From the IMG/VR virus record IMGVR_UViG_3300020576_005736: a stretch of 20,000 bases of DNA; one strand, 5' to 3'. This DNA is from an uncultured virus (IMG/VR IMGVR_UViG_3300020576_005736) (lineage: Duplodnaviria > Heunggongvirae > Uroviricota > Caudoviricetes). The translations under genes and the position numbers were made by a program. The notes under the pieces are model-generated. The model saw only the letters and a program-made list of their open reading frames with translations. It was not told the origin of the DNA and did not search any database. This document shows positions 2,448-18,500 of the stretch, in pieces (position 1 is the first letter of the stretch; each line of letters opens with the position of its first letter).

Positions 2448-3023
2448 TCACTCACTCTTCTCCTCAGTGGTGGATTCCGAAGCGGTAGTCTCGGGAAGCG
2501 GACCGAGGCAGATGTAGCCGTGATCACGATCCCAGTGCAGAGTGGACAGGGCCAGCTTGCGACTGTAGCCCGCATCCACCATGGCCTTGACGAAACTCTC
2601 GCCAGTCGCAACCGACTCAGCCTCGACGTCTCCGACCACCTTCTCGTAGATCACGAACGTGTCGAACGCTCGCGAGCCAGGGCGCTTCGGATTGTTCGAG
2701 ACCAGGAGGTGCAGCTGCGCCGAGAGATCCAGCGTAGTGGCACCGACACGAGGAGCACCCTCCTCGGCAGGAGTCTTGGCAGCCGAGGGCTTCTCGGTCC
2801 CCCACACGAGAGACTCGTCCTCACCCTCGCGCAGAACGGCATGACCGTGCATCTGCAAGAGCTCATCTCGAGCCTTCTCCAGTCTCGCAACACCAGTCTT
2901 GGCGTCACGGAACTTCTTCACGAAGTCCTCCTCAGATCGACCGAGAAGGGGCTGTGCAGCATTATACGCAGCCGTCAGCTGGGCCATGGTCAGGCTCGTG
3001 AAGTCATCAACAGTATTCGGCAT
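2448..3023 (-). CDS. hypothetical protein, NPKxP-domain paralog 2 (191 aa)
   Basis: GAGGAG SD; contains NPKRPGSRAFDTFVIY...LHWDRDHGYI. Confidence 0.85.
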   Translation of the reverse strand: MPNTVDDFTSLTMAQLTAAYNAAQPLLGRSEEDFVKKFRDAKTGVARLEKARDELLQMHGHAVLREGEDESLVWGTEKPSAAKTPAEEGAPRVGATTLDLSAQLHLLVSNNPKRPGSRAFDTFVIYEKVVGDVEAESVATGESFVKAMVDAGYSRKLALSTLHWDRDHGYICLGPLPETTASESTTEEKSE

Positions 3024-3188: not shown

Positions 3189-3806
3189 TCAGGACTCGAT
3201 CTGCTGAGCCGCCCACTCCTCGAGAGTGACGACTTTGATGAAGCCCTTGCCGAGATCGTACTGGACGTCGGCCTTGGTGCCGCCAGCCTTGATGAACTCA
3301 GCGATAGACTGGCCGACAGTGTAGAGCGCATAGCGCTGAAAAGCGGCGGACGAGGGCTTCTTGGGATTCGGGGCTACGAAGGAGATGATGCGAGGATCGT
3401 CAGGAGACGGAGCCGGACCCTTGGTCCCAGGCTCGTAGGTCACCTTCTCCTTCTTCGGACCGTGGGAACGAGAGCCGTTCGGACGAATGTGAGGACCAGC
3501 CTGCTTGTCAGGTCGACCAGTCGGCTCGGGATAGTTGCGAGTCAGAGGTTGAGACATGAGAATCTCTAGAATCTTGGGATCCAGAGTATCCCCGCATGCC
3601 ACGACCACGTCGACGTGAGCGACATCCTGGAGATGCTCGGCGAGCTTCTCAGCATCGGGCTCCTCACTGTCGAGGATGTCCGGAACCAGTCCGGCCTCAT
3701 GACACGCATTCCAGAGAGTAGCCACCTGCTCCTCGTCCATCTGCGAGAGATACTTGGTGTAGAGAAGTTCATTCTCGGTGTTGGCGGCGGTATTGTTGTC
3801 AGACAT
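3189..3806 (-). CDS. hypothetical protein, NPKxP-domain paralog 3 (205 aa)
   Basis: C-terminal DPRII..NPKKPSSAAFQRYALY..GGTKADVQYDLGKGFI; acidic N-terminal domain. Confidence 0.88.
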   Translation of the reverse strand: MSDNNTAANTENELLYTKYLSQMDEEQVATLWNACHEAGLVPDILDSEEPDAEKLAEHLQDVAHVDVVVACGDTLDPKILEILMSQPLTRNYPEPTGRPDKQAGPHIRPNGSRSHGPKKEKVTYEPGTKGPAPSPDDPRIISFVAPNPKKPSSAAFQRYALYTVGQSIAEFIKAGGTKADVQYDLGKGFIKVVTLEEWAAQQIES

Positions 3807-3827: not shown

Positions 3828-3889
3828 GCCCTGACTCATCAGTGCCGGGTGGGCGTATCCGGCAGACAGGCCGAGTGGCCTGTTTCGTC
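3828..3889 (-). ncRNA. type II hammerhead ribozyme with loop I/3'-tail pseudoknot (predicted cleavage between 3865 and 3864)
   Basis: RNA: GAC GAA ACAGGCC-ACUC-GGCCUGU C^ UGCCGG-AUACGCCCAC-CCGGCA CUGAUGA GUC A GGGC. Complete core (CUGAUGA, GAAA, GUC site), stems I-III, GCCC/GGGC pseudoknot. Confidence 0.9.
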
Positions 3890-3939
3890 TCACTCCCACT
3901 CCCACTCGTAGTCTCACTCCCACTCCCACTTGTAGTCTC
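3887..3939. repeat. 24-bp tandem duplication of the 3' end of the upstream gene
   Basis: gtctcactcccactcccact(c/t)gta x2 plus gtctc. Confidence 0.9.
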
Positions 3940-4516
3940 GCTCCTGAAGCGTGACCTTGCGGATCCGAACGTAGTCCGGAATTAGAAGACCGAGTTCCCG
4001 AGCCTCGACTCGAAGATCTCTGAGCCTGTTATCGATCTGCTCAGGATCGTCTGTCAGAGCTTCCTCGAGAAGGTGGGTGACCTTGATACTTCCACCTCCT
4101 GAGGCAGAGCACGTGGCCGAGGTGTTCCTGTAGGACAGATAGACGGTCCTGTCTGCACCCTCAGGAGACATGATGACCACATAGGCCACAGCGTCTGAGT
4201 CCATGCGAGGAGCCTCGTCGGCGACGGGTGCCGGGGAGGTGGCTGTCGTCCGCTCCTCGTCCATGTTCACGAGACGAAAGAGCTGCCCTCCGTACATGTC
4301 TCCGTCACGAATGACGTTGATGGTGTCTCCGTCGATGACGATGGTGTGACCGACTGTGTTGTACTGAACATCGTCCGCGATGAGAGGATCCTTGGACTCG
4401 CATCCCTGGAAGGCGTCCCAGTCAGTTTCCGTGAACTCACGGAAACTGGAGAGAGCGATCTTTCGCAGAAGTCCCAGAGCAGTCACGCTCGTCCTGATGT
4501 CAATTGGCGATCCCAT
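3914..4516 (-). CDS. hypothetical protein (200 aa; likely start ATG 4516)
   Basis: Strong AAGGAGGAG SD before MGSPIDIRTS; overlaps the upstream stop. Confidence 0.8.
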   Translation of the reverse strand: MGSPIDIRTSVTALGLLRKIALSSFREFTETDWDAFQGCESKDPLIADDVQYNTVGHTIVIDGDTINVIRDGDMYGGQLFRLVNMDEERTTATSPAPVADEAPRMDSDAVAYVVIMSPEGADRTVYLSYRNTSATCSASGGGSIKVTHLLEEALTDDPEQIDNRLRDLRVEARELGLLIPDYVRIRKVTLQERDYKWEWE

Positions 4517-4964
4517 GAATCTCCTCCTTCTTGATGTAGTATCTCGGGAACTGGACTGACTCGAGACGAGAGATGGTAGTCTCGAGAGTTGTGGTGAACG
4601 TCTCCTCCTCGGGAGGAAGCAGCCTTCCCATGTCACATCGTCGGTGCACGTGGTCCAGAACTGCTCGAAGCGCGTAGCTCACGTTGTCTCGACGGTCGCG
4701 GCGCGCCGCGCCGCGCTTACGCCCGGAGGCGTAATGCTGGAACTTTAGCACATCGTCGGCATCGACCGAGAGAGGCTCTGGGATCCTGAGACTGTCCAGC
4801 TCGTCAGCTACATTTCTGAGCAACTGCACGCGAGCCATACCATTCAGGCGAGTATCTCCCCGGTCCGTCACCCCTCGTATGTCGGACACGAGAGACTGGA
4901 GTTCCGACCGGGCAATTGCAAGAGCCTCTCGGACTGACGTCCTGTAGGTCTTGACAGGCATCAC
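4500..4964 (-). CDS. hypothetical protein (154 aa)
   Basis: GGAG SD; 4-nt start/stop overlap with the upstream gene. Confidence 0.75.
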   Translation of the reverse strand: MMPVKTYRTSVREALAIARSELQSLVSDIRGVTDRGDTRLNGMARVQLLRNVADELDSLRIPEPLSVDADDVLKFQHYASGRKRGAARRDRRDNVSYALRAVLDHVHRRCDMGRLLPPEEETFTTTLETTISRLESVQFPRYYIKKEEIHGIAN

Positions 4965-5281
4965 ATGTCTCCTTCCTTGGCGGAGTAGAGCAGGAGGACA
5001 AAGTCCGCTGCAGGGTCCTGCCCGTTCATGATCTCCATGGAGTCAGAGAAGGCAGGAAGCATACAGGGCGACCGACCATCGCACCACTTCTTGACCTCGT
5101 CAGCGATGCTGAACTTCATAGACTTGATCTGGAGGTATCGCTCGATGTTGTCGAGCATGGGGCGAGTCATCGGACCGCCAGAGAGGCTCGGACCTCTCGA
5201 CTCGATCCCACCCTCACGAAGAGCCGTCGTGACTCCAAGGAAGAGGTTGGGATGGGAACTCTGATCGTACATAATGTTCAT
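4961..5281 (-). CDS. hypothetical protein (106 aa)
   Basis: GAGGAG SD; directly downstream of the promoter at 5313-5341. Confidence 0.75.
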   Translation of the reverse strand: MNIMYDQSSHPNLFLGVTTALREGGIESRGPSLSGGPMTRPMLDNIERYLQIKSMKFSIADEVKKWCDGRSPCMLPAFSDSMEIMNGQDPAADFVLLLYSAKEGDM

Positions 5282-5312
5282 GGCATCTCCTCGCCGTTCT
5301 ACCTATACCCTA

Positions 5313-5341
5313 ATACTACGCTATCTGCAGGGCGTAGTAAA
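5313..5341 (-). promoter_or_regulatory. sigma70-like early promoter TTTACT-N17-TAGTAT with internal 8-bp inverted repeat
   Basis: Near-identical to 7118-7146; TACTACGC/GCGTAGTA arms overlap the -10 and -35. Confidence 0.8.
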
Positions 5342-5344
5342 GGG

Positions 5345-5617
5345 CTAAATTTGCATCATGTCCAGATGATTGACCAGCGGAAGGAACGGACGAGGCATCT
5401 CGAGAAATGCACGAAGCTCCGGAAGAGCTCCGTCAGGACTCCTCATGACCAGCTCGGTGACCTCAGAGGAGGAGACGAACTCCTCATTCTTCGGAGCTCC
5501 AGGCCCAATCTGATGAACACGAGTCCAGCCGCCAGGCTGATCAGGAGTTCTGCGGATCTCGATCCGTCCCATGTACATGGTCTTCTGATAGACCACAGCG
5601 TCCTTCTTCTTAGACAT
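5345..5617 (-). CDS. hypothetical protein (90 aa; start MSKKKDAV)
   Basis: GAGGAG SD before ATG 5617. Confidence 0.7.
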   Translation of the reverse strand: MSKKKDAVVYQKTMYMGRIEIRRTPDQPGGWTRVHQIGPGAPKNEEFVSSSEVTELVMRSPDGALPELRAFLEMPRPFLPLVNHLDMMQI

Positions 5618-5831
5618 CTTTGACTCCTCTCTGGATGCTGAGAACGACGCGGGTTTTGTAGTCAGAAGCTGAGTTCTCCTGGAAGATCTTCGTTCCCTCA
5701 ACACAAAGGTTCAGGAAGACCTGAGGATCAAGAGCCACAACCTTGTGCTTATGATGATTGACTGCCAGCCACAGCTGGTAACCATCGAAAGACAGGTAGA
5801 CTCCATCTCCAATATGAGTGGATTTCACCAT
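5610..5831 (-). CDS. small phage hypothetical protein (73 aa; HIGDGVYLSFDGYQLWL motif)
   Basis: AGGAG SD before ATG 5831. The motif resembles a recurrent small phage protein family (from memory, not searched). Confidence 0.75.
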   Translation of the reverse strand: MVKSTHIGDGVYLSFDGYQLWLAVNHHKHKVVALDPQVFLNLCVEGTKIFQENSASDYKTRVVLSIQRGVKDV

Positions 5832-6055
5832 TTCTGGTCTCCTGTCTTCGAGCCGACGGCCCAGCGATTGTCGGTCCACACTGCGAAGAAGTAAGCCTTG
5901 AGCTCCTCCGACACAGTGAAGTACGAGCGAACGTGGTCGGGGAGTTCGTGCTCCTGGACCTGAGTTGTGTGCTTCCGCTTCTCGTCGTAGATGAGGAAGG
6001 GAGCGTTGACCGGAAAGAGCGGTCGCTGAATCTTGACGATCTGATCAGTCATCAC
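5825..6055 (-). CDS. hypothetical protein (76 aa)
   Basis: Overlaps both neighbours; GGAG SD. Confidence 0.7.
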   Translation of the reverse strand: MMTDQIVKIQRPLFPVNAPFLIYDEKRKHTTQVQEHELPDHVRSYFTVSEELKAYFFAVWTDNRWAVGSKTGDQKW

Positions 6056-6557
6056 ACGCTCCAGAAGTCACGACAGGCACTGCGGAACTCCAGAGAGTTT
6101 CTCTCCCAGATCTGTCGGCGCATCTCATCGAGAGACTCCTGTCTAGCAGTGAGGACATCATCAGTGAGAACATCACACTGCTCGTCTGCACTCAGAGCAT
6201 CTGAGCACGTCTGGTAGATCTCAGCACAGACGTCCAGAGAGACAGAGTCCTCAGAGGTCAGGAACTCTCGGATCTTCTCGTCCTCCACGTGGTCCCATGG
6301 ACCCATAGTCCACTCAACCGACGGCCAGTAGACGATGACTCCGAGCCCCATGCTGTCTGCGTGCGAGTCCCGTATCATATCTGACAGCTGGTCAACATCG
6401 AGATTCGAGCACCTGACCATCCGAGAGATGATCTCGTTCTGCCCGGGACCGTCAACGCCCACACAGGAGCGTCCGTACATTCCTCGTCCGGAGTAGGACC
6501 GAGGTCTGAGTCCAACGCCTTCAGAGCGCGGACCAGAGTATCACAATCAATATTCAT
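6052..6557 (-). pseudogene. phage 'YSGRGMYG...CVGV' family protein split by a 1-bp frameshift near 6522 (mutation or sequencing error)
   Basis: ATG 6557 (GGAG SD) gives MNIDCDTLVRAL. The -1 frame continues EGVGLRPRSYSGRGMYGRSCVGV...DSMGLGVIVYWP to the stop at 6052. Confidence 0.65.
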
Positions 6558-6580
6558 TCTTGCTTCTCCGCTTTGGGTGT

Positions 6581-6633
6581 CTCCCGAGGATCAGTCCTCG
6601 GGAGTGTCTCTCGGTGAGGAGGATCAGTCCTCG
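6581..6633 (-). other. twin hairpins GAGGA-CUGA-UCCUC (one has a perfect 10-bp stem, 6581-6604)
   Basis: gaggatcagtcctcg at 6586-6600 and 6619-6633; no U-tail. Confidence 0.6.
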
Positions 6634-6845
6634 TCGTCCTCATCTTCGTGATCGTTGACCTCCTCGACCTCGTAGGCGGAGTCCTCCTCGTACCACTCAG
6701 CACCCTCGAAGATCTTGTGATGAGGATTGTCCTCGTCGGCTCCAGCCTCGACCATCTCCGTGGCCTTGTCCTCGTCCTCAGCCTCCACAGTGATCGTAGC
6801 GACATGGAGGACAGTGCGAGCAACCTTCACGTCAAACTTGGGCAT
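6624..6845 (-). CDS. small very acidic protein (73 aa; 27 D/E vs 5 K/R)
   Basis: GAGGAG SD before ATG 6845 (MPKFDVKVARTV...EDEDDED). Confidence 0.85.
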   Translation of the reverse strand: MPKFDVKVARTVLHVATITVEAEDEDKATEMVEAGADEDNPHHKIFEGAEWYEEDSAYEVEEVNDHEDEDDED

Positions 6846-6856
6846 CTTGCATCTCC

Positions 6857-6925
6857 TCGGTCCTGACTCGTCAGCGCCGGACGGACCAATCTCCTGGCGG
6901 ACACGCTCACTGAGCGTGTTTCGTC
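6857..6925 (-). ncRNA. type II hammerhead ribozyme with pseudoknot (predicted cleavage between 6900 and 6899)
   Basis: RNA: GAC GAA ACACGCUC-AGU-GAGCGUGU C^ CGCC(A)GGA-GAUUGGUCCG-UCCGGCG CUGACGA GUC A GGACCGA. Complete core; UUGGUCC/GGACCGA pseudoknot. Confidence 0.88.
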
Positions 6926-7529: not shown

Positions 7530-7870
7530 CTCTTCTCCTCCGCTGAGAACCACAGGCAGTCCTCAGACTCACTGAACCACTGAACCACCTTCGGACGATA
7601 CTTCTCATCGATCTTCAGATGAATCTCATTCGGGTTGTCCTGACGGACGTTCTCCGCACGGATCTTTCGTTTAATGAGCTGAGCGTTCACCGCATGGGAC
7701 GGTGCCTTCGCGATCACAAGCATGGTGTGGTTCCTCGTTAGCCTCAGCTCACCGTCGGGTGATCTGGTGCTGGTTGCTGCGCGTGGTGCGCCTTGGTCAG
7801 AGCATAATCGCTCACGGATAGGGCGGCGCTCGTCCGAGCAGTATGCGATCGGTCATTTCTCCACCTCCGC
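7499..7870. repeat. ~45-bp dispersed direct repeat of a gene junction (about 7499-7543 and 7826-7870)
   Basis: gcgctc(c/g)tccgagcagtatgcgatcggtcat...cctccgc present twice. Confidence 0.85.
7526..7723 (-). CDS. hypothetical protein (65 aa)
   Basis: GAGGA SD; lies between the two repeat copies. Confidence 0.65.
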   Translation of the reverse strand: MLVIAKAPSHAVNAQLIKRKIRAENVRQDNPNEIHLKIDEKYRPKVVQWFSESEDCLWFSAEEKR

Positions 7871-8173
7871 AGTACGACGCCAGACTCGAACACCAGGGGT
7901 CGGAGGGTGCTCCTTCCCGTCGTCAGTCCACGACTCGGTGGTCTGCTTCGTGATGAGGAAGTACAGGATCCTTCCGCTCTGCCGGAACTGTACTGCCCGG
8001 ACGCTGATGCGTCGCTGGAGGACGGCAGGAGAACAGTTGTACGCTGACGCTGGTACGAAGAAGGAGTCGCCCTCTTCCAGTGCACAGATGACCTCCGACA
8101 GATCGGAGGTGCCCCGAGAGCCGGAGCTTCGACCAGTGGGTACAGGGATATTCTTCTGAATCGTGATGCTCAT
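7853..8173 (-). CDS. phage hypothetical, putative small DNA-binding protein (IQKNIPVP...LEEGDSFFV...GVRVWR; 106 aa)
   Basis: GGAGG SD before ATG 8173. The motif pattern resembles a widespread small phage family (from memory). Confidence 0.75.
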   Translation of the reverse strand: MSITIQKNIPVPTGRSSGSRGTSDLSEVICALEEGDSFFVPASAYNCSPAVLQRRISVRAVQFRQSGRILYFLITKQTTESWTDDGKEHPPTPGVRVWRRTAEVEK

Positions 8174-8586
8174 GACAGACCTCCTGAGAAGATGAACGTG
8201 GTGAGGGCACCCCCCTCCTGGAACCAACAGTCCGTGAAAGACACGATAGTGATGTCTTGGTACGAATACTTCACCATCTCCACAATGCAGCCAGTCTCCT
8301 TGTTCTCCCAGATCACCGTTTTGCTCGACTTCGGGGCCTCCGCGAAGATCGTCCGAACCATCGCTCCGACCAGCCACCCCATCTCACGAAAGTCATCCTC
8401 CTCGCTCTCCGAGAAGAAGATAGCCGCTCTTCCAGGGAGTCTGCGTACAGTATCCTCCCACTGGTCCAGATCGAACTCCTTGCGGAACTCGGCCACGGAC
8501 TGAGGAAGTCCGTCCGGAGATGCCATCTTGATCACCTCGTCTAGGGCATGGCTGAATGAGGGAAGAAGAACAGTTGCTTTGGTCAT
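8170..8586 (-). CDS. hypothetical protein (~138 aa; likely start 8586)
   Basis: GGAG SD; first gene after promoter 8671-8699. Confidence 0.75.
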   Translation of the reverse strand: MTKATVLLPSFSHALDEVIKMASPDGLPQSVAEFRKEFDLDQWEDTVRRLPGRAAIFFSESEEDDFREMGWLVGAMVRTIFAEAPKSSKTVIWENKETGCIVEMVKYSYQDITIVSFTDCWFQEGGALTTFIFSGGLS

Positions 8587-8670
8587 CACAGATTCTCCGA
8601 GCTCTTCTTGAGAATAACGTAGTTCATCAGTACCTCCCATAGTGCTAGTTAGCTATACGCTAATAAACTT

Positions 8671-8699
8671 ATTATACGTATAGCCTAAACGCAAGTAAA
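8671..8699 (-). promoter_or_regulatory. strong sigma70-like promoter TTTACT-N17-TATAAT
   Basis: Perfect -10, 17-bp spacer, A-rich stretch upstream. Confidence 0.85.
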
Positions 8700-8769
8700 G
8701 CGGTATTTTACGATGAGCGACCGGCGGAGCTCGCACGGAGCGACGAAAACCCCACCCGGACGAATCGGG

Positions 8770-8855
8770 CGGAGCGACGGACAAAGAGGACACGGAGCGA
8801 CGGACAAAGAGGACACGGAGCGACGGACAAAGAGGACACGGAGCGACGGACAAAG
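8770..8855. repeat. 23-bp tandem repeat x3.7 (cggagcgacggacaaagaggaca)
   Basis: Exact units at 8770, 8793 and 8816, partial at 8839; no T on the + strand. Confidence 0.95.
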
Positions 8856-8867
8856 TACCGACGCGCG

Positions 8868-8898
8868 AAAGCCGCCCTAGGGCAGACCCTAGGGCGGC
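8868..8898 (-). terminator. terminator-like hairpin (12-bp perfect stem, short U3 tail)
   Basis: GCCGCCCTAGGG-CAGA-CCCTAGGGCGGC followed by UUU on the - strand. Confidence 0.5.
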
Positions 8899-9108
8899 CA
8901 GCGGAGAGGATAGCGGACTAGGCCAAGTAGCCGGCGGACCGAAGCCACGTAGCCGTAGCCGCAAGGCGACGCGCCCGAGCGGCGGCGCGGCGCGCAGGGA
9001 CGGACGGACAAACGCGGACGGGCACACCGGCGCAAGCGAATACAAGGTAGCGGCGGAGAGCGGACTTAGACATAGATAACCCCTAAGAAAGAATAGGATA
9101 TAAGCGGT

Positions 9109-9135
9109 AAAGCTAGGCGGGGTAGCCCGCCTAGC
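9109..9135 (-). terminator. terminator-like hairpin after gene 9158-9457
   Basis: GCTAGGCGGG-GTAG-CCCGCCTAGC followed by UUU on the - strand; adjacent (TAGCGCG)x3-4 repeat at 9132-9158. Confidence 0.6.
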
Positions 9136-9157
9136 GCGTAGCGCGTAGCGCGTAGCG

Positions 9158-9457
9158 CTACCCTACCAAAAGGTAGCCCTTACGTATATCGTATAAAAAA
9201 TCGGCCCGGTTAGCGCCGTTTTTTACCGCTAGCGCTTGGGCTAGCGTAAACGGGGCGGCGGGGTAAAGCGCGTAGCGCGCGTAGGCGGCGCTACCGGGTT
9301 TTTTGGGGTTAGGCGTAACCGCCGTTACGGTTACGGTTAGCGGCGCGCCGCCTACGTAGGCGGTAGGGTTACGCGGCGCTACCGCGTTAGCTACCGGCGG
9401 TAGCGTAGCGGCGGTAGGCGTAGCGGCGGTAGGCGTAGCGGCGGTAGCGTTAGGCAT
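9158..9457 (-). CDS. NPKxP-domain paralog 4 (99 aa), first gene of the early arm, encoded in dinucleotide-restricted DNA
   Basis: NPKKPGSAAYARYALY...GANRADFLYDIRKGYL aligns with the three paralogs. It has its own promoter, AGGGG SD and terminator; the N-terminal PTAAT repeats come from a 15-bp DNA repeat. Confidence 0.9.
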   Translation of the reverse strand: MPNATAATPTAATPTAATLPPVANAVAPRNPTAYVGGAPLTVTVTAVTPNPKKPGSAAYARYALYPAAPFTLAQALAVKNGANRADFLYDIRKGYLLVG

Positions 9458-9471
9458 TTGTAACCCCTAGT

Positions 9472-9509
9472 TAGCCCCTAGCGGGGCGGGTAGCCCCTAG
9501 CGGGGCGGG
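9472..9509. repeat. 19-bp tandem repeat x2 (tagcccctagcggggcggg) in the 5' leader, each unit a small hairpin
   Basis: Exact copies at 9472 and 9491. Confidence 0.9.
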
Positions 9510-9541
9510 TAGGGCTAGCTACCTAGCTAACCCTTAAACTA

Positions 9542-9570
9542 ACCTTATACCCTAGCCCCTAGCCCGTAAA
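9542..9570 (-). promoter_or_regulatory. sigma70-like promoter TTTACG-N17-TAAGGT
   Basis: Same TTTAC -35 family, 17-bp spacer, AT-rich upstream; +1 (~9535) coincides with the hairpin at 9511-9534. Confidence 0.65.
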
Positions 9571-9697
9571 GTTATTTAATACTTATGGTATACTACGGCT
9601 AAACTATAGCTATACTTTACTAGGTTTTTTTACCTAGTAACTATACTTATATTAGGTATAATACCCTAAATGGTTACTACGCTATACTACTATTAGC

Positions 9698-9718
9698 CTT
9701 TAGTATAATATACTAAAG
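9698..9718. promoter_or_regulatory. 21-bp palindrome CTTTAGTATA-A-TATACTAAAG (candidate protein-binding site)
   Basis: Perfect 10-bp arms; a second inverted repeat TTACTAGG/CCTAGTAA lies at 9617-9640. Confidence 0.5.
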
Positions 9719-10606
9719 TATTAGCCGCCCGTATAGGGCTAGGTATACGGTGGTGGTCGGTCGGACCGTGGCTAATTCACGTGTTTCCAGGTCACTCTTC
9801 TGACAATATCTGACACAGCTGCTGGGTGGGATCCTGGCAATCTCTCTGTCCAGCTTCTCGCATACAAGCATTGTTCTCTCCTGCTCTCTGTCCCGACTAT
9901 ACAGTACCACCGTCTCGTAGTATAGGCGCTACGCGGGCGGCGGTAGTAGGGCGGCTGCGAGGTAGCTGGGGACCGCTGGGAGGGTCGCTGGAGCCTGTGG
10001 TAGCGGGCGGCGGTAGTAGGGCGCGGGGCGGCGGCTAAGGCGGTCCTGTGAGGATGGGAGGGGCGCGGCTATAGGGCATCTGACATTGACGACTGAGTGG
10101 TTATTCTGTCATCAGGATGAGGTTAGGGTATGGAGGGCTGGGGACAGAGAGCGGCGCAGCCCGAACCTCGTACACATGACGTGAGTCCTCATGCAGAGAT
10201 CAGTATTACGTCACCAATAGTTTAAGCGCGCACCCTATTAGCACCCTTAATAGGTGCATATGTACAGCTAACCCCTTGTAATATAAGGACTTTTCAGCCC
10301 TCGCGTACGCACGCCTATATACGTGTCGCAGGTAAAAAATTTTCGTGCCGCCAGAAAATAGACGACTAATATTCGTAATAAGCCAATAACACTCTTATAT
10401 TTCAATAACTTAGATCCTATTAGTCCGCCTATTACGCCTTTCCAGAGGTTCCGATCTAATAGCTTTTTACGTGGATCTGAATAATCGGGGAGGGCGTAGC
10501 TGTTCAAGATTACGAGATACTTGCTCACATGACGTATATATGCGCGCGTGGGGGATTGTGCCAGAACTCCTCCCCGGCTATACTTGTCTGAAAGTAGGAG
10601 GATCTC

Positions 10607-10825
10607 ATGACAAAGAGAGCGACGTTCGTCCTTCCTTCGGGGAAGGTGCTTCAGCTCACTGAGCGTAAGGCTCAGCGAAAGACAGCTATCAACAAGACGA
10701 AGACAAAGATCCAGGAGCTTCTTCAGTCAGCAGACAGCACACGAACAACAAGGAAGATGACTCCAGAAGAGGTCAGAGAGCAGCTGAGATGGAATAAGGA
10801 TGTACACAATGCACGCAACAGCTGA
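10607..10825 (+). CDS. basic hypothetical protein (72 aa)
   Basis: AGGAGG SD; TATACT -10 candidate at 10579-10584. Confidence 0.7.
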   Translation: MTKRATFVLPSGKVLQLTERKAQRKTAINKTKTKIQELLQSADSTRTTRKMTPEEVREQLRWNKDVHNARNS

Positions 10826-11342
10826 GCTCGTACGATCAGTACTTCGATGGTCTCTCACTGTGGTTGCACACGAGGAGGCTGCGCACGGGCGCTTTCCCGG
10901 TCCCCGCATCTCTCAGTTCTGCCTCGGTAATCTGATGTCCAGGACTGACCCTGCGACTGCTGCTGCCATCGCCAAGGAGATCGCCGAGATCGAGAAGGCG
11001 GAGGAGACAGACATCTACATGGACTCGCTCATCTCCTGTATCAGAGCAAGCTGGGGACAGAGAGCTCCTGGCAAGCCGCGCAGAACAGGAGCCGAGGACA
11101 CTGTCATGGTGGCGAGCCGAATGGTCTCTGCTCTCAGACAGTTCAGCAACAGCCAGGACAGAGAACTCATGGAGGTGTGCTGCTCTGTGAAGACCTGGAA
11201 GCAGGTGGAGAAACTGATGCCAGGTAGAGTCTGGTCGTCTATTCGGGACGACTTCGAGAAGCTCTCTCGACGCTTCTACCTGAAGGAGAGCCACACAGTC
11301 TGCGCGACCGCAGAGTTCATTACTCAGCTCTCCAAGAAGTGA
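10809..11342 (+). CDS. hypothetical protein (~177 aa), possible late-transcription regulator
   Basis: AAGGA SD before ATG 10809. Function is inferred only from its position upstream of terS and a helical C-terminus. Confidence 0.7.
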   Translation: MHATAELVRSVLRWSLTVVAHEEAAHGRFPGPRISQFCLGNLMSRTDPATAAAIAKEIAEIEKAEETDIYMDSLISCIRASWGQRAPGKPRRTGAEDTVMVASRMVSALRQFSNSQDRELMEVCCSVKTWKQVEKLMPGRVWSSIRDDFEKLSRRFYLKESHTVCATAEFITQLSKK

Positions 11343-11386
11343 CAGAAAATAATTTCGGCGACGAGAACTTTTTAGCTTGTGTTTTT

Positions 11387-11414
11387 CTGCCAACTAGGCT
11401 AAACTCGGTATAAT
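11387..11414 (+). promoter_or_regulatory. candidate promoter for the terminase operon (CTGCCA-N16-TATAAT)
   Basis: Perfect -10 at 11409-11414 just before the GAGGAG SD; T-rich upstream. Confidence 0.5.
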
Positions 11415-11429
11415 GAGGAGATTCCGCCA

Positions 11430-11957
11430 GTGAGCGATTCAGGTACATTTATCGAGAGCGCGAAGGGAGGACCAGGTGGCTGGGGTCCCGAGCGGCTCTC
11501 CAAGATTCCTGAGTACAAGCTCCAGATCGTGGAGCTTATCGCCTCTGGTCTGTTCGTCTCCGAGATCTGCCAGCAGATCGGTATCACCCCACCCACGGTC
11601 CGCAAGTGGCGAGCCGAGGACAAAGAGTTCGACGAAGCCTACACTGACGCAGAGGCTCAGGTCACTGACACTCTGGAGAAGGAGGCGATCCGTCGAGCTC
11701 GGAACGGTGTCCTCGAGCCTGTGGTCTCTGGTGGCAAGGTCGTCATGGACCCAGCCAATCCAGGAGAGGTACTCCAGGTTCGTCGCTACAGCGACGGACT
11801 TATGCAGTTCCTTCTCAAGGGTCGTCGTCGCGACGTCTACGGAGACAAGCGCGAGGTCGAGGCGAAGGTCGGTATCGATGTCGTCGGAGCCAAGTCCTCT
11901 CTGGAGGCCAAGTTCGCGGCTGCCGCAGCCGCTATAAGCGAAGGATCCGGAGAATGA
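11430..11957 (+). CDS. terS: terminase small subunit
   Basis: N-terminal HTH (EICQQIGITPPTVRKWR..D.EF), LEKEAIRRA..G...YSDGLMQFLLKG motif, position upstream of terL. Confidence 0.85.
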   Translation: MSDSGTFIESAKGGPGGWGPERLSKIPEYKLQIVELIASGLFVSEICQQIGITPPTVRKWRAEDKEFDEAYTDAEAQVTDTLEKEAIRRARNGVLEPVVSGGKVVMDPANPGEVLQVRRYSDGLMQFLLKGRRRDVYGDKREVEAKVGIDVVGAKSSLEAKFAAAAAAISEGSGE

Positions 11958-12151
11958 CCACTGCTGTCACTGTTGACGCTCATGCAGGCTGGCCTGTGCG
12001 AGTCACCCTCATCGATCAGTCGCCGGACGGAATGACTCAGTCTGAGTCTGTGCAGATCGTCGCCGCGAACACGAAGCAGGCCTTCTATGTCTGGAATGGT
12101 CGGGACATCAAGGTCCACGAGCTTCAGCCCGGAGAAGTCTCCGAAGAGTAA
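11954..12151 (+). CDS. small hypothetical protein between terS and terL (65 aa)
   Basis: ATGA overlap with the terS stop; GGAG SD. Confidence 0.75.
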   Translation: MTTAVTVDAHAGWPVRVTLIDQSPDGMTQSESVQIVAANTKQAFYVWNGRDIKVHELQPGEVSEE

Positions 12152-12166
12152 TCACTGAGGACAGTC

Positions 12167-13540
12167 ATGCTCACAGCAGCCACGCTTCGCAAACTCCCGG
12201 CTGCTGCGCGTAGCGACTTCTTCTCGTCTCTATCGGACGAGGAGGCTGCTGTCCTCATGTTCGACTGGAACTTCTGGGCTCGACACGACCAGAAGATGCC
12301 CGATGCTCTCCTGGACACGTCCAGTCCTATCGTTACATGGCTCGCTCTGGCTGGTCGCGGCTGGGGCAAGACACGTGTTGGCTCTCAGGCTCTCATTGAC
12401 GAGGTCTACCATGCCAGAGCTGGACGCATTGCTCTTATTGCAGAGACTGCAGCTGACGCTCGCGACGTCATTGTGGAGGGCGACTCTGGCATTCTGGCTT
12501 GCTCACCTCCCTGGTTCCGACCAGCGTACGAGCCGTCCAAGCGACGACTCACCTGGCCGAACGGAGCTTTGGCCTTCACGTTCAACGCTGTAGAGCCAGA
12601 CCAGCTTCGCGGTCCGCAGTTCGACTTTGCCTGGGGAGACGAGCTTGCTAAGTGGCGCTATGCTCAGGAGACTTTTGATAATCTCCAGTTTGGTCTTCGT
12701 CTTGGGCGTCGTCCTCGACAGATCTTCACGACCACTCCTCGACCGATCAAGATCGTCAGAGAGATGGTCAACGACCCCACAGTATTTGTCACGCGTGGGC
12801 GCACACTCGACAATGCGGACAACCTGGCAGCGAGCTTCCTTGCTCAGGTGAAGCGCAAGTACGAGGGGACACGTCTCGGCCGACAAGAGCTCGAGGCAGA
12901 GATCCTTCTCGACACTCCAGGTGCTCTGTGGACGAGGTCTATGCTAGAGGCTGCGTACCTGAAGCCTCTGGAGACTGAGGTGTTTCCAGCACACATGTTT
13001 TCTCGAATAGTGGTTGCCATCGATCCGGCAGTCTCCAACGAGGAGGGGTCGGACGAGACGGGCATTGTTGTTGCAGGTATTCGTGCTAGCGACGATCATG
13101 TAGTCGTGATCGACGACCAGAGCGGAAGATACTCCCCAACAGAGTGGGCTCAGAAGGCTGTCTTCCTGTTCAGGAAGTTCTCTGCAGACCGAATCGTGGC
13201 AGAGGTGAATCAGGGCGGTGACATGGTTGAGACGACCATTCGCATGATCGACCCGAACGCTCCATACAAGAGCGTCCATGCCAGTAAGGGCAAGGTCACT
13301 AGAGCAGAGCCTGTCTCTGCTCTGTACGAGAAGGGATGGGTCCATCACATGGGGTCATTTCCTATTCTAGAGGACCAGATGTCCCAGTTTGCCAGAGACT
13401 TCGACAAGAAGATCATGGGGTTCTCGCCTGACAGGGTTGATGCTCTGGTCTGGGCGATCACTGAGCTGAAGATCGACATAGGCGACGGAACTGCCATCAT
13501 CGACTTCTATCGGAAGCAGACTGAGGGAAAAGAGATATGA
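12167..13540 (+). CDS. terL: terminase large subunit
   Basis: Walker A AGRGWGKT, Walker B FAWGDE, motif III TTTP, RNase H-like nuclease IVVAIDPA..DETG..PDRVDA. Confidence 0.95.
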   Translation: MLTAATLRKLPAAARSDFFSSLSDEEAAVLMFDWNFWARHDQKMPDALLDTSSPIVTWLALAGRGWGKTRVGSQALIDEVYHARAGRIALIAETAADARDVIVEGDSGILACSPPWFRPAYEPSKRRLTWPNGALAFTFNAVEPDQLRGPQFDFAWGDELAKWRYAQETFDNLQFGLRLGRRPRQIFTTTPRPIKIVREMVNDPTVFVTRGRTLDNADNLAASFLAQVKRKYEGTRLGRQELEAEILLDTPGALWTRSMLEAAYLKPLETEVFPAHMFSRIVVAIDPAVSNEEGSDETGIVVAGIRASDDHVVVIDDQSGRYSPTEWAQKAVFLFRKFSADRIVAEVNQGGDMVETTIRMIDPNAPYKSVHASKGKVTRAEPVSALYEKGWVHHMGSFPILEDQMSQFARDFDKKIMGFSPDRVDALVWAITELKIDIGDGTAIIDFYRKQTEGKEI

Positions 13541-14145
13541 CTCTTCCTGTCTTTCCGACTCTGACGGGAGTAGACTGGGACATTGAGCGGAAGATACTGT
13601 GGGCGACTAACAGGTACGTGTCCGTGTCTGGCCTCAGAACAAGCAGCCCGCTCAGGACTCTTCCAACAAGATCTTGGAAGATCCGGATCTCTCTCCTCAG
13701 GTCTGGAGTCTTTCAAGGACAGACACTGACTGAGATGGAAAGTCTTGCTGGGCTGTACAACACATGCTGTGGTGCAGCATATCCCTTCTCGTACAGAGAC
13801 GATACTGACAGCACTGCTGTGGCACAGGTGTTCGGGACAGGTACTGGGTCTGCTAAGACGTTCCAGCTCTGTCGATCTGTCGGGGGATTTGTCGAGCCAG
13901 TGTACCTTCCTGGATCCCCGATCTCTGTCTATAAGAACGGAGTGGTACAGTCCCCATCCTCGTACTCTGTCGGACCCACGGGCCTGGTGACGTTCAATAC
14001 TGCTCCTGCATCAGGGGTCGTCCTGACCTGGTCTGGATCGTACAGCTGGCTGTGTCGGTTCGATGAGGACAGTCTTGAGACTGTCCAGACGATGCCAGGT
14101 AGGTTCTCCGTCTCTTCTCTCTCGTTCACATCGGAGCTGTTATGA
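13537..14145 (+). CDS. DUF2460 / TIGR02217-type distal tail protein (GTA-like)
   Basis: FGTGTGSAKTFQL, VTFNTAPASGVVLTWSG..CRFDED motifs; synteny with DUF2163 and NlpC. Confidence 0.8.
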   Translation: MTLPVFPTLTGVDWDIERKILWATNRYVSVSGLRTSSPLRTLPTRSWKIRISLLRSGVFQGQTLTEMESLAGLYNTCCGAAYPFSYRDDTDSTAVAQVFGTGTGSAKTFQLCRSVGGFVEPVYLPGSPISVYKNGVVQSPSSYSVGPTGLVTFNTAPASGVVLTWSGSYSWLCRFDEDSLETVQTMPGRFSVSSLSFTSELL

Positions 14146-15146
14146 AGTCGTGCACTCCTGCTCTGGCCGCACTGTTGGACAGCGGGATGTACCTGGACGG
14201 AACGTCACTTCCTGATACGTTCGTCCCGTTTGATCTCTACACAATAACACTGACTTCAGGAGTGGTGCAGACACTTACCACGGCCAACGTACCCATCTAC
14301 GCCCCAAGCACTGACATCTTTTCGGCGCCAAGTGTGTTTACCCCTGAGGCTGACGTGTGGTTCTCCGGAATGACGTGGCTTCCGAGCGTGATCGATGCCG
14401 GAGGAACCAGGTCTACTGGTCGGTGGAGAGTAGGTCTGGACACAGACACATGGACGATACATCTGTCGCCGAGGAAGACGCATCCTGTCACTGGCGCTGC
14501 GGATCCGGATACTGTGGCGGGCATTCCCTGGGCCACAGCTGCCAGAACAGGCATGCTCGACCACGCAGACGTCATCGTGTCGCGAGCATACTTCAGCTCG
14601 CTTCCGACGTATCCTGTACCGGATCCTGGTGCTGTTCCTGTTGGTACTCTGACGCTATTCCGTGGTACTATCGGAGACATGGAGATCACTGACTCCAGCA
14701 TCACCATTGTCGTCTCAGACTACAAGTCTGTCTTCGACCAGCTGGTTCCTCGAAATGTGTATCAGTCGGGGTGTCCCCACCAGCTGTACGACAGTCACTG
14801 TGGTCTCTCGTCGTCAGCATTTGCAGTCTCTGGAACGGTGGCGGCGGGCTCCACGCGGTCCAAGATCCGAGGAACTGTGTCGTCTCCGAGCGGGTCTGGA
14901 TCATGGGTCCTCGGAAGGATGAAGATTACGTCAGGGCCGAACGCAGGTATCAGCAGACTGATAACTGCCTGGAGTGCAACACCTGGGTTTACACTGATGA
15001 CACCGTTCCCGTACTCGGTGACACCGGGAGAGACGTTCATGGTCTATCCAGGGTGTAACAAGACCCTGGCAGCGTGCACTCTGTTCAATAACACCGTGAA
15101 CTTTGGGGGTAATCCGTTCATTCCAATCCCGGAGGTGTCACTGTGA
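14142..15146 (+). CDS. DUF2163 / BR0599-type baseplate hub (lambda gpL-like) protein
   Basis: CPHQLYDSHC and GCNKTLAAC...NFGGNPFIP cysteine motifs. Confidence 0.88.
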   Translation: MKSCTPALAALLDSGMYLDGTSLPDTFVPFDLYTITLTSGVVQTLTTANVPIYAPSTDIFSAPSVFTPEADVWFSGMTWLPSVIDAGGTRSTGRWRVGLDTDTWTIHLSPRKTHPVTGAADPDTVAGIPWATAARTGMLDHADVIVSRAYFSSLPTYPVPDPGAVPVGTLTLFRGTIGDMEITDSSITIVVSDYKSVFDQLVPRNVYQSGCPHQLYDSHCGLSSSAFAVSGTVAAGSTRSKIRGTVSSPSGSGSWVLGRMKITSGPNAGISRLITAWSATPGFTLMTPFPYSVTPGETFMVYPGCNKTLAACTLFNNTVNFGGNPFIPIPEVSL

Positions 15147-15574
15147 CAACCGTCTCTCGCCAGACAATTCTCGACGAGGCACAGTCATGGCTAGGGACAC
15201 CGTTCCATGACTGTGCCTCGGAGAAGGGCGTGGGTGTTGACTGCGCAATGCTGCTGAAGAAGGTCTTTGAGAACTCCGGGGCTGTAGAGTTGTTCGATGC
15301 CGGAATCTACTCTCCACAGTGGTTCCTGCATCGGGATCAAGAACTCTTCATGGACACTGTTCGTAGATACGCACGGGAAGTCTCAGAGGACGAGGTTCTG
15401 CCTGGCGACATTGTTCTGTACAAGATTGGAAGATGCTACGCTCACGGTGCAATCGTTGAGTCCTGGCCGCATAGCATAATCCACGCACACAAGGCATCTG
15501 GTAGAGTTATCAGGACTACTGCTGATGACTCTGATATGCGCGGGCGACTTCGGAAATTCTTCACACTGTGGTGA
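15143..15574 (+). CDS. NlpC/P60 family tail-associated peptidase
   Basis: WLGTPF..GVDC catalytic Cys, followed by HGAI and IIHA histidines. Confidence 0.9.
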   Translation: MTTVSRQTILDEAQSWLGTPFHDCASEKGVGVDCAMLLKKVFENSGAVELFDAGIYSPQWFLHRDQELFMDTVRRYAREVSEDEVLPGDIVLYKIGRCYAHGAIVESWPHSIIHAHKASGRVIRTTADDSDMRGRLRKFFTLW

Positions 15575-15578
15575 CTTC

Positions 15579-18500
15579 ATGGGCGGATTCTTTAGCACTG
15601 GAAAGAGGGTCAATAATCAGACCCCAGTTGCAACGAGCCTGCGCGCACAGACCTCTGTCCAAGGACGGGCGAAGACGATCGGGTGGGGGCAAAACCGAAT
15701 TGCCGGTAACGTTGTGTGGACGGGCGACTTCCGAGCCATCAAGCAGTCGTCTGGTGGTAAGGGAGGCGGAATCGGCGGTAAGGGTCAGCCTGGATCGTAC
15801 ACGTACCGGTCTTCGTGCATCATCTCGCTTGGTAATGGTCCTATCGACAGTGTTCGTACGCTCTTCAATGGAACAGCTGTAGACTTCTTCTATCCCCCGG
15901 ATGCCTCGGTTCTGGAGGACCTCAAGAAGCTAAATATCAAGCCGAAGTACAATGATCCTGCGTATCCTGCGACGTTTCTTCTGGGAACGCAGGTACAGAC
16001 TTCGTGGCCATATCTCTCGACAACGCATGCAACAGAGGCTCTTGCCTATCGTGGAGAGGTACTTGCCTGCTTCGCGAACTTGAACCTTAACAGCTCTCCG
16101 TCCATTCCGAACCTCACGTTCGAGGTGCGATGGGGACTGAACTCATCTGCAGGGAGCCCTGCTGCTGACGTCAACCCTGCCGATGTCATTGTGGATCTGA
16201 TTGGGAACGATGTCTATGGTCTGAATGGGTTTCCTAGCGCTCTTCTCGACTCTCTTGGTTCCTTTCGACTGTACTGTCGTGCACTGGGGTTGTTCGTTAG
16301 CCCCGTTCTCAACAGCCAGGTGGCTGCGTCCAGCTTCTTAATGGATCTGACAAAGAGCTTGTGCGCTGAGTTCCGCTGGAGTTCGGGGAAGCTCGCGATA
16401 GTCCCGTATGTAGACTACACTGTTACCGGTAACGGAGTGACCTTTACTCCGGACACGACAGCTCAGTATGTAATCTCTGAGGATGCTCTCATTCCGATCG
16501 ATGGGGACGGTGGTGCATCTGTAAAGCTGATTGTTAAGAGGGCTGCGCCCTCGAAGAAGGTGAACAAGGTTCAACTGGAGTATCTCGATCGCTCAAATCT
16601 CTATAATCCTGCGACCATCTACGCTGTGGATGAGGCTGGGGTGATCGATGCGGGGAGTGTTCGTCTTAGCGATCTTCGCAGTAATCATCACTTTTGCATG
16701 GAGTCTGCTGCGTCTGCTGCGTGTGGTCTTCAGCTGGAGAGAGAGCAACATACCACCCGGTTCACGTTCTGCCTACCAGGTAAGTTCGTGCGTCTCGACC
16801 CTATGGATATCGTCACGCTCAGCCTCCAAGACACTAGTCTTGGGCTCGTGAACGTCTCTGTTCGGATTCTTGAGATTACGGAGACGGACCAGCGTACTTT
16901 GATGTGTGTAGCGGAGGAATTCCTCGGTGTAGCTACTCCATCCAGTCGGGTTCATCAGCGTAGCAGTGGTGACGCCTCTAACTCAAACGTGGATCCAGGA
17001 GAGATCAATCCTCCGTTCGTGTTCGAGCCTCCGTGGAAACTTGCTGGTAGCCTGGAGATCTGGGTTGCTGTCTCAGGCGCGGACATTGCGAACTGGGGTG
17101 GATGCCATGTGTGGGTGTCCTTTGACGGAGTTTCGTACTCACGTGCAGGCTCGATTGAAGAGCCAGCCCGGACGGGCGCACTCGTGCAGTCTCTCGCCAC
17201 CATCGCAGTATCCGGGGACAACCCAACACTTGACAACACTCACACACTTCGAGTGTCAACAGCTGAGAGTGGTGGAGAGTTGTTCTCTGGATCGTCGCAG
17301 GATGCTGGCGTTGGTAACACTTTGCTTCTCGTTGGTAATGAATATCTCTCCTACACAACAGCCACGCTCGTGGCACCATCTGTGTACGATCTGACAGGTC
17401 TCGTGCGAGGTCTGCACGGCACTACAAGCACTGTCTCGGCCCATGCTGTGGGTACTCGCTTCGTTCGTGTTGATGACACTGTGTTAAAGATTCCGTACAC
17501 AGCGGCCCAGATTGGGTCGTCAGTGTACGTCAAGATGACGTCATTCAACATCTTCGGTACGTCCGATGTATCTCTCGCTGATGTTGATCCGGTCACTATC
17601 ACTCTGGCCGGGACGAGCAGAACTCCGGCTACCCTCAGCGCTCTTGGGATCGAGAGCGAGATTGATGCTGCGATCTCGGATGCGATTGTTGCTGAACTCG
17701 TGCCAATCTCGGCTGCGATTGAGGTGAACGCTGACGCTAACCGAGTGGCTCATGCAGCGGATGACGAGCTCCGTCGTATGATCGTTGTCGGCTCTGAGGA
17801 CGTGCACCTAAACAGTGCAGCTGGCCACATGGTGGCTCAACAGCTCGCTGCCGACGCTCTTGGAGCTGCTGACAGAGCAGCTGCAGCCGTAGAACGGACG
17901 CAACAGATTGTCTCCGATGCGAGTGAGCAGGCTGCATCTGACCGCCTTGTAGTGGCTGCTAAGATTGACGACAGCTTTGCAGCTGTCGCTCAGGTGGAGA
18001 TCGCATCCGTCAATCGCGACAGGTCTATTGCGGGAACCATCGATCAGACAGTTGCCACTATCAACGGAGAAACTGGCACTCTGGACGCGGCTGTGGCCAG
18101 CATGGAGGCTCGCCGTGCCGGAGAGGCTGCGTCGGCGCTGGCCGCGCAAGCTCTTGCGGGAGTGGACAAGTCAAGTGTTGCTCTTGCTGAATTGGATAGA
18201 TCGCTCGCATCGGATCGGAGTGTCTGGATCGCTCGCATCGGGGAGGCTGAGTCTGCCATCGAGCGACAGACGCAAGTGATGACTGAAGCCGACCAAGCTC
18301 TGGCTCAGGACATCCTTACTCTATCAGGAACTGTGTCGACAGACCTCGCGACAGTTGACGGTCGTATCGACACTCTAGATCAGGTGCTTGCTACAGAGCA
18401 GGCTGTATCAGCAAGTCGCTCGGACACGCTGACATCAGGTATTGCTTCTGGTGAGCAGGATGCCGCCCTGATTGCGGCCCTTGCCCATTTTGCTGCAGGG

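Follow-up and report, generated by a model that had tools for sequence, protein, structure and literature searches.

Why should thymine followed by cytosine or guanine be missing from little more than one kilobase of a phage genome, and along part of it from one strand only? The question is raised by a stretch of 20,000 nucleotides (nt; the window) from an uncultured tailed phage (Caudoviricetes; IMG/VR record IMGVR_UViG_3300020576_005736), in which the + strand contains no TC or TG at positions 8767-9098. The two dinucleotides are written here as TS (S, C or G) and their complements, GA and CA, as SA. The 332-nt one-strand zone forms part of the left, one-strand side of a single island of 1.1 kb (8641-9750), the right part of which is depleted on both strands and contains a small recoded gene and promoter-like sequences. 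The phage encodes enzymes of a thymidine-hypermodification pathway, and T before C or G is the context to which restriction mapping in four other phages has assigned such decoration. We judge it somewhat better than an even bet that the island cannot be hypermodified and that an early control region is thereby kept bare.

The composition of the one-strand zone agrees exactly with the original prediction, which had described a + strand devoid of TC and TG and rich in GA and CA. The + strand holds 99 A, 90 C, 127 G and 16 T, and in strand-resolved counts T is followed by A 15 times, by T once and by C or G never (TC 0, TG 0), with GA found 42 and CA 19 times. The TS-free run extends over 424 nt (8766-9188), ending on the right where it had been predicted to end, and is flanked by TC at 8765 and 9189. 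Zero TS was reached in none of 50,000 mononucleotide shuffles of the zone (mean 10.5, lowest 2; analytic P 3.9e-8), and P is 3e-9 when the genome-wide P(S|T) of 0.706 is applied. The zone includes four tandem 23-bp repeats; after these had been collapsed to one copy (263 nt, 15 T), zero TS was again absent from 50,000 shuffles (lowest 3, P 5.5e-8). Since P stays at about 4e-8 to 5.5e-8 in the shuffled and the repeat-collapsed sequence, the TS deficit survives correction for the low T content and for the 23-bp repeat, the check that had been suggested along with the prediction. SA is at expectation on the same strand (61 observed, 64.7 expected; 61 of 99 A), and the - strand accordingly bears a normal load of TS.

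To the right of this zone the depletion affects both strands. In the two-strand zone (9099-9750, 652 nt) TC, TG, GA and CA together occur 9 times against ∼162 expected (TC 2, TG 5, GA 0, CA 2). TS is seen 7 times where 85 are expected (P 1.5e-41), at 7 of 161 T, and SA twice where 77 are expected (P 3e-44), at 2 of 145 A. T itself is retained at 25% of bases, as TA or TT. The rule is directional, with the base 3′ of T alone being constrained: CT (42), GT (47), AC (35) and AG (50) are all plentiful. To the left, an intermediate stretch (8641-8766) with TS at 4 of 25 T and SA at 12 of 39 A leads to the gene at 8170-8640, in which TS is normal (77 of 106 T). The TS and SA counts in these four segments confirm the predicted descent of the bias from two strands to one strand to ordinary sequence.

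The island is unique in its genome. The virus record (G001, 62,065 nt; window base 1 is G001 42612) contains the window, apart from 546 nt by which the window extends past the end of the record. Along the whole record, intervals of 200 nt with four or fewer TS occur only at G001 51247-52368 (window 8636-9757), and those with four or fewer SA only at G001 51687-52413 (window 9076-9802), where the genome means per 200 nt are 31.3 TS and 30.5 SA. The ranges of the two strands differ: the + strand is cleared of TS from ∼8641 to 9750 and the - strand from ∼9076 to 9802. On the left, clearing of the + strand stops right at the start codon of the gene at 8170-8640, the first long one of the early block. 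The zone is not an assembly artefact, because contigs from two independent studies reproduce the sequence. In this comparison of assembled contigs from public runs, one contig (X1) matches 8826-12000 with 1 difference and another (X3) matches 8826-9770 with 20 differences, and both break only at the 23-bp tandem repeats.

The original prediction had described the region as a non-coding buffer. This is true of most of the island but not of the whole two-strand zone, which encloses a conserved open reading frame of 99 amino acids (9158-9457, - strand). Its relatives indicate that it is a real gene: homologues of 105 and 155 amino acids lie at the same place in two related phages (loci L007 and L016), nine further relatives were found in databases, and the C-terminal domain of ∼60 amino acids is common to three larger early proteins of the window. 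Ordinary genes have 30-33 TC, TG, GA or CA steps per 100 nt. The gene in the window has 6 such forbidden steps in 300 nt, compared with 46 in 318 nt and 57 in 468 nt in the two homologues. Enumeration of the genetic code shows that DNA without these four dinucleotides on both strands cannot encode Met, His, Gln, Asp, Glu, Cys or Trp, and such residues number 4 among the 99 amino acids of the window protein, compared with 12 in 105 and 16 in 155 for its two homologues. The six exceptions are Met1 (the start ATG), Gln74, Asp86, Asp90, one Leu codon TTG and one Pro-Lys codon junction, and they account for six of all nine forbidden steps in the two-strand zone. The nearest relative (P0003, 89% identical) has a His where the window protein has Tyr. 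Despite the reduced set of amino acids, the gene keeps its frame and its motif. The scarcity of forbidden steps and residues relative to the homologues, exceptions included, shows that the pressure is strong enough to reshape the protein while its conserved core is held.

The 99-amino acid protein is the shortest member of a family of four early paralogues, all on the - strand (1583-2158, 2448-3023, 3189-3806 and 9158-9457), which share the domain NPKKPGSAA..RY.LY...D..YD..KG. This domain has no Pfam or PHROG match, and the PHROGs assign no family to the recoded protein or its paralogues. An AlphaFold model of the protein (mean pLDDT 61) consists of a strand, three helices and a strand. Foldseek returned nothing for it at E ≤ 0.001 and the ESM Atlas no match at ≥0.9. 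The best VIA-align Z scores (4.2-4.8, to RRE, PriA-WH and MetAP2-insert domains) hint at a weak winged-helix-like similarity and lie below the noise level stated for the tool. A degenerate pattern for the PNPKKPG stretch matched 24 loci, two of which encode the protein, both already known.

The genes of the phage suggest what the missing dinucleotides have in common. The genome (∼62-65 kb) encodes a 5-hydroxymethyldeoxyuridine (5-hmdU) DNA kinase at G001 27398-28528 (Pfam HMUDK_hel, E 3.6e-43, 148 bits against a cut-off of 25, residues 43-366 of 376), which is 38-45% identical in tblastn to the kinases of PhiJL001, PaMx11 and the M6-like phage MP1412; a family search of G001 bore out the assignment. 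A thymidylate synthase homologue (Pfam Thymidylat_synt, E 7e-16) is 38-42% identical to its counterparts in the same three phages; that of PhiJL001 is annotated as similar to the dUMP hydroxymethylase of SPO1, and the matches fit a hydroxymethylase or a methylase alike. Further genes of the kind found in such pathways encode a dCTP deaminase/dUTPase-like protein, a YfbR-like HD nucleotidase, a DUF3310 protein, a TAGT-type glycosyltransferase and two Pyr_excise-like proteins, and the phage also carries PolA, an AEP primase, a UvrD-like helicase and a ribonucleotide reductase. DNA comparison with known phages gave no match in either near or distant mode. A genome-wide excess of TC and GA (ratios 1.46 and 1.35) was considered as support and set aside, as phages without the kinase reach 1.23-1.28 and the measure does not discriminate.

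In the DNA of M6, ViI and ϕW-14, sites that resist restriction are reported to be dominated by TG and TC, and a TS preference of the 5-hmdU kinase was proposed on that basis (Flodman et al., 2019, PMC6449724). For phage SH-Ab 15599, TG is described as preferred for modification, TC as less so and TT and TA as much less (NAR, 2026, PMC13458397). The exact modification motifs were not yet known at the time of Lee et al. (2018, PMC5889632). The present phage resembles the M6, PaMx11, ViI, ϕW-14 and SH-Ab 15599 systems in having the 5-hmdU DNA kinase, a thymidylate synthase-like enzyme and nucleotide-pool enzymes, and what the island lacks is precisely the TG/TC context described for these modifications. 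It differs from them in the island itself, as the portions of those papers concerned with modification describe no motif-free island; nor was a published description of one found in the literature searched, where the cost of hypermodification for phage gene expression is also not addressed. It differs too from systems with aGPT-Pplase and AADT transferases, in place of which a TAGT-type glycosyltransferase is found. The observation itself is confirmed and highly non-random, and it probably belongs with cases in which a motif is avoided on account of DNA modification.

Two close relatives show the same tendency more weakly. One (G002) is complete, has a large terminase subunit (TerL) 85% identical to that of the window and carries the kinase; the other (G003) is a 23-kb fragment with a TerL 88% identical. 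With TS expressed as a fraction of T, the small gene and the promoter cluster give 0.06 and 0.06 in the window, 0.30 and 0.16 in G002, and 0.46 and 0.26 in G003, a graded depletion at this locus compared with 0.73-0.78 in neighbouring genes. The asymmetry between strands is found in G002 as well, where a 152-nt spacer has TS at 3 of 18 T and SA at 17 of 34 A, and in G003 different tandem repeats are free of T on the same strand (longest TS-free run 146 nt). Between G002 and the window phage the kinase is 63%, the glycosyltransferase 67% and one Pyr_excise-like protein 64% identical; the second Pyr_excise-like protein and the ligase are missing from G002. In G003 a second intergenic stretch of ∼115 nt (L015 114-234) is free of TS and SA on both strands and holds two TATACT elements, a hint that the lineage has further promoter regions cleared on a small scale. 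The large terminase scan covered 73 loci, of which only L015 (from the same record as L007) and L016 are close, with a longest TS- or SA-free run of 146 nt (L015); the small terminase scan gave two loci, of which only L007 is close.

How these observations could be joined into a mechanism is as follows. Most likely, T would be replaced by 5-hydroxymethyluracil (5hmU) during replication, and part of this base would be decorated after replication, with the 5-hmdU DNA kinase taking the first step. If the decoration is placed on T before G or C, as mapped in other phages, a strand without TG and TC would stay bare. Both strands would then be bare at 9099-9750, covering the promoter-like cluster and the small first gene, and at 8767-9098 the + strand alone would be bare over the repeat array between the small gene and the leftward early promoter. 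An injected, fully decorated genome would have to be read at once by host proteins, above all by RNA polymerase, and bulky groups on T in the major groove would be expected to hinder such reading. Transcription data point in this direction: Escherichia coli RNA polymerase is reported to transcribe templates containing 5hmU at 2.5-3.5 times the level of natural DNA, and phosphorylation by 5-HMUDK to lower transcription to 37% of that from natural DNA, or 10% of that from 5hmU templates (Vanikova et al., 2019, PMC6457204). Leftward transcription would use the bare + strand as its template, and this strand would stay bare exactly to the point where the first long early gene has its start codon. 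Our preferred guess is therefore that the first kilobase of template read from the decorated, injected genome is kept bare. Thus, of the ideas attached to the original prediction, that of a + strand kept free of modified T is the one we favour, by way of the kinase pathway and the TG/TC context as far as it is set out in the published reports.

Another guess for the one-strand part is a hemi-decorated binding array that would be read by a regulator or an origin protein. Taken further, the phage may write a modification map into its own sequence: loss of every T before C or G would give a bare region of 1.1 kb, with a gene confined to 13 amino acids, and beside it a hemi-decorated stretch, bare on the + strand and fully loaded on the - strand over the unique array of 4 × 23 bp, which would act as a strand-specific signal. 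We regard this larger idea as tentative and on balance doubtful. Through such a signal, the first host RNA polymerase could have clean template as far as the first early gene; alternatively, a regulator could distinguish parental, decorated DNA from newly replicated, undecorated DNA.

Several points weigh against a modification-free control region as the explanation. That the DNA of this phage is modified, we infer from its genes and its composition, and the TS preference is borrowed by analogy from kinases 38-45% identical, for which it was deduced from restriction patterns and not by direct mapping. No aGPT-Pplase or AADT transferase family of Pfam was found in 73 proteins (E ≤ 0.001) or in 9 unassigned neighbours (E ≤ 1); the two Pyr_excise-like proteins and the TAGT glycosyltransferase might take the transferase role. 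Promoters need tens of base pairs, and the proposed purpose leaves a cleared length of 1.1 kb, including a whole gene, unexplained; nor does it account for transcription of the decorated early genes further left. The reason given for the strand asymmetry is a guess. In the close relative G003 the corresponding zone (L007 3608-3910, 303 nt) has TS at 9 of 18 T and is T-poor rather than TS-free, and the promoter cluster is mildly depleted. The whole genomes of PhiJL001, PaMx11 and MP1412 have no island (longest TS-free runs 64, 63 and 75 nt), and across the 57 IMG/VR loci surrounding kinase homologues (885,493 nt in all) no TS- or SA-free run exceeds 133 nt. The comparison with related phages that the original prediction had called for thus gave a mixed outcome, with a weaker trend in two close relatives and none in distant kinase phages, which suggests that the island is lineage-specific, fast-evolving and extreme in the window phage.

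Two tracts that came up in this survey were rejected as islands. The 133-nt run (L275) is a poly-Glu coding repeat, and a 109-nt SA-free tract of MP1412 upstream of the small terminase gene (L013 35090-35197) consists of simple repeats (GTAA/TATC) with TC on the same strand. Brevundimonas phage Polewnik, with a TerL 53% identical, has no such zone in bases 1-50000 and no annotated kinase there.

The avoidance could also have arisen without any benefit to the phage. In DNA that spends much time single-stranded or is transcribed heavily, hypermodified T, or its processing by glycosylase-like proteins of the phage, might be mutagenic, and TS would then erode wherever selection is weak. Most of the island is non-coding, the exceptions inside the 99-amino acid gene fall at conserved residues as if purifying selection opposed the bias, the degree of depletion varies strongly among close relatives as in a drifting process, and two Pyr_excise-like proteins are encoded, all of which suit such decay. 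Against decay, the 849 nt adjoining the island on the right, also mostly non-coding, keep a TS fraction of T of 0.48, with 0.37-0.82 in the remaining 16 intergenic gaps of the genome. At the forbidden steps of the relatives, the window has changed T or A in 7 + 7 cases and the neighbouring S in 9 + 8 (against L007; ancestral states not polarised). These roughly equal numbers, which a lesion at T does not predict, point to the dinucleotide rather than to a damaged T as the target. T is moreover kept in the two-strand zone, nearly always before A or T, and the gene has been pushed to a reduced amino acid set without losing frame or motif. We consider local decay improbable, if less so than the explanations that follow. 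Binding arrays unrelated to base modification, such as the 23-bp repeats acting as iterons and repeats of the TAGC, GTAGCG or CTAG type serving an origin or a regulator, might produce the bias as a by-product. The region is indeed rich in repeats, with 13 direct-repeat families (among them 4 × 23 bp, 3 × 15 bp and 2 × 19 bp) and with TAGCG 16 times and GTAGCG 9 times in 659 nt, and at the corresponding place L007 carries tandem repeats of another sequence that likewise lack T. Nevertheless, the signal persists after collapse of the 23-bp repeat, the rule extends across a GC-rich spacer, hairpins, a protein-coding gene and an AT-rich cluster, and the absent motif is exactly the published modification context, so that an origin in binding arrays appears quite unlikely to us.

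Protection from nucleases offers a different kind of reason. A host nuclease of Type IV-like specificity might recognise the decorated base, and the island, as the part exposed first or longest, would be shielded from it; the one-strand part would escape enzymes that require a mark on two strands. The composition and the pathway genes fit this as well as they fit a readable control region, from which it is inseparable here, and it explains directly how one bare strand might be enough. Against it stands the other ∼61 kb of the genome, which carries the motif at full density and would offer targets on entry, and we give shielding of this kind only a slim chance. Still less credible is the restriction-safe buffer put forward in the original prediction, in which the absence of SA or TS on one strand would prevent palindromic sites, bipartite Type I sites and inversely oriented Type III sites. 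Sites containing TC, TG, GA or CA are excluded on a depleted strand, but the rule removes only 4 of 16 palindromic tetramers and 30 of 64 palindromic hexamers, and in a modified genome no DNA would be less protected than a bare region. When palindromic (Type II) sites were counted, tetramers numbered 63 per kb in the one-strand zone, 102 in the two-strand zone and 57 in the genome, and hexamers 15, 26 and 14, with CTAG, GCGC, CCTAGG and GCTAGC frequent. Palindromes are thus at genome level in the one-strand zone and ∼1.8-fold enriched in the two-strand zone, the reverse of what avoidance would bring about.

Features of the control region in and around the island (window positions; strand left empty where none applies)
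Feature	Position	Strand	Basis and remarks
First long gene of the leftward block, 156 amino acids	8170..8640	-	Open reading frame list; composition normal; left limit of island
Candidate sigma-70-like promoter facing left, TTTACT, 17-nt spacer, TATAAT	8671..8699	-	Consensus scan, 10 of 12 matches
One-strand zone	8767..9098	+	16 T, none before C or G; - strand with 61 TS
Four tandem 23-bp direct repeats, core CACGGAGCGACGGACAAA	8768..8860		Repeat search; no T on + strand
Perfect 12-bp inverted repeat with 4-nt loop (GCCGCCCTAGGG / CCCTAGGGCGGC)	8871..8898		Repeat search; followed by GC-rich DNA
Two-strand zone	9099..9750		TC, TG, GA and CA almost absent
9-bp GC-rich hairpin (CTAGGCGGG gtag CCCGCCTAG)	9113..9134		Sequence inspection; just downstream of the 99-amino acid gene
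Recoded 99-amino acid gene within the two-strand zone	9158..9457	-	Homologues in two related phages and 9 database proteins
Two exact 19-bp direct repeats (TAGCCCCTAGCGGGGCGGG)	9472..9509		Repeat search; upstream of the 99-amino acid gene
AT-rich cluster with five TATACT (9589, 9611, 9642, 9683, 9709) and one at 9702 on the - strand	9586..9714	+	Motif positions
18-nt box ACGGTGGTGGTCGGTCGG	9747..9764	+	Right edge of island; dense in TS on + strand

The elements collected in the table suggest how the region might be used. The original prediction had placed the zone between the first gene and the main early promoter, and this is roughly right: a candidate promoter facing left lies at 8671-8699, beside the first long gene, and a -10-like cluster at 9586-9714. 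The -35 variant of the former, TTTACT, has no TG. It alone fitted in promoter scans; the TATACT cluster did not fit the -35/-10 pattern. The first TATACT of the cluster is preceded by TGG, like an extended -10, and a promoter function of the cluster is proposed from its motifs. The terminator scan called no canonical terminator in 8400-11500, so that transcription may pass leftward through the one-strand zone; two hairpins followed by short runs of T do lie on the way, and the hairpin at 9113-9134 was not called by the scan. Rfam gave a single sub-threshold snoRNA match, and no tRNA was found. The gene at 8170-8640 has no Pfam or PHROG match, and a search for its relatives in viral contigs gave nine pattern matches, none of them confirmed.

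Each unit of the 23-bp repeat carries about seven TS on the - strand and none on the + strand. A genome search allowing up to three mismatches returned these four units and one poor match. The array lies 57 nt from the AT-rich sequence at 8641-8710, and the primase and helicase genes are ∼25 kb away; no replication initiator gene was identified for an iteron-type origin at the repeats. At the opposite edge, the 18-nt box (ACGGTGGT(G/C)GTCGGTCGG) is conserved in both related phages despite diverged surroundings, with one base changed in one of them (window 9747-9764, L007 4627-4645, L016 ∼4943-4960), and might be a packaging, origin or transcription-start signal. A scan of viral contigs for the box gave three matches, one of which (L101) is an unrelated coding match. 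In metagenome contigs there were at least 119 matches, nearly all by chance, and L201 (460 nt) alone was related by blastn.

To the right of the island, ∼850 nt (9758-10606) contain no convincing gene and have an ordinary TS fraction, with a TA-rich part at 10119-10598; together with the island they make up ∼2 kb with one small gene only. In a contig from a riverine metagenome (run X5), window positions 7837-9945 are replaced by 703 other letters. The island and the promoter cluster both fall within the replaced block, as do two genes (7853-8377 and 8170-8640), and the locus behaves as an exchangeable module. The window also encodes an ATP-dependent ligase, the small and large terminase subunits, distal tail genes like those of gene transfer agents (GTA) and a large tail protein. 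The order is unusual: the large terminase gene is followed directly by the GTA-like distal tail genes (DUF2460, BR0599-like, NlpC/P60 and a tail protein of more than 1491 amino acids) at 12167-20000, and the portal is elsewhere, as a 1019-amino acid portal-MuF fusion (G001 3852-6911). At 18600-20000 the G+C content rises to 65-70% in the Gly/Ala-rich C-terminal part of the large tail protein.

Avoidance of restriction sites is familiar in phage genomes, and Type III sites can be strand-biased, as are the EcoP15I sites of T7. The island resembles such avoidance in that a deficit of a short motif would arise from a conflict between DNA and protein, with a strand-specific component in both. In the island, however, the deficit is confined to 1.1 of 62 kb and affects four dinucleotides instead of a site, with palindromes enriched. 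Another parallel may be the unmethylated CpG islands of vertebrate promoters, which are likewise regulatory regions free of a genome-wide base modification. CpG islands, in contrast, retain the target motif and are shielded from the enzyme, whereas in the phage the motif has been written out of one strand or both.

Where thymidine hypermodification is placed in phage DNA has been deduced only indirectly, through the restriction patterns of a few phages. An island from which precisely TG and TC have gone would provide independent, evolutionary evidence that the TS context is real, and that it matters strongly enough to reshape a protein. It would also indicate that the mark interferes with something the phage needs, and that this need can be specific to one strand. 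Searching for such islands may offer a cheap, sequence-only route to predict which motifs uncharacterised DNA-modification systems target and to find the early control regions of uncultured phages. If the explanation favoured here is true, maps of dinucleotides alone would reveal both the target motif of DNA-modifying enzymes not yet known and the DNA that must stay readable.

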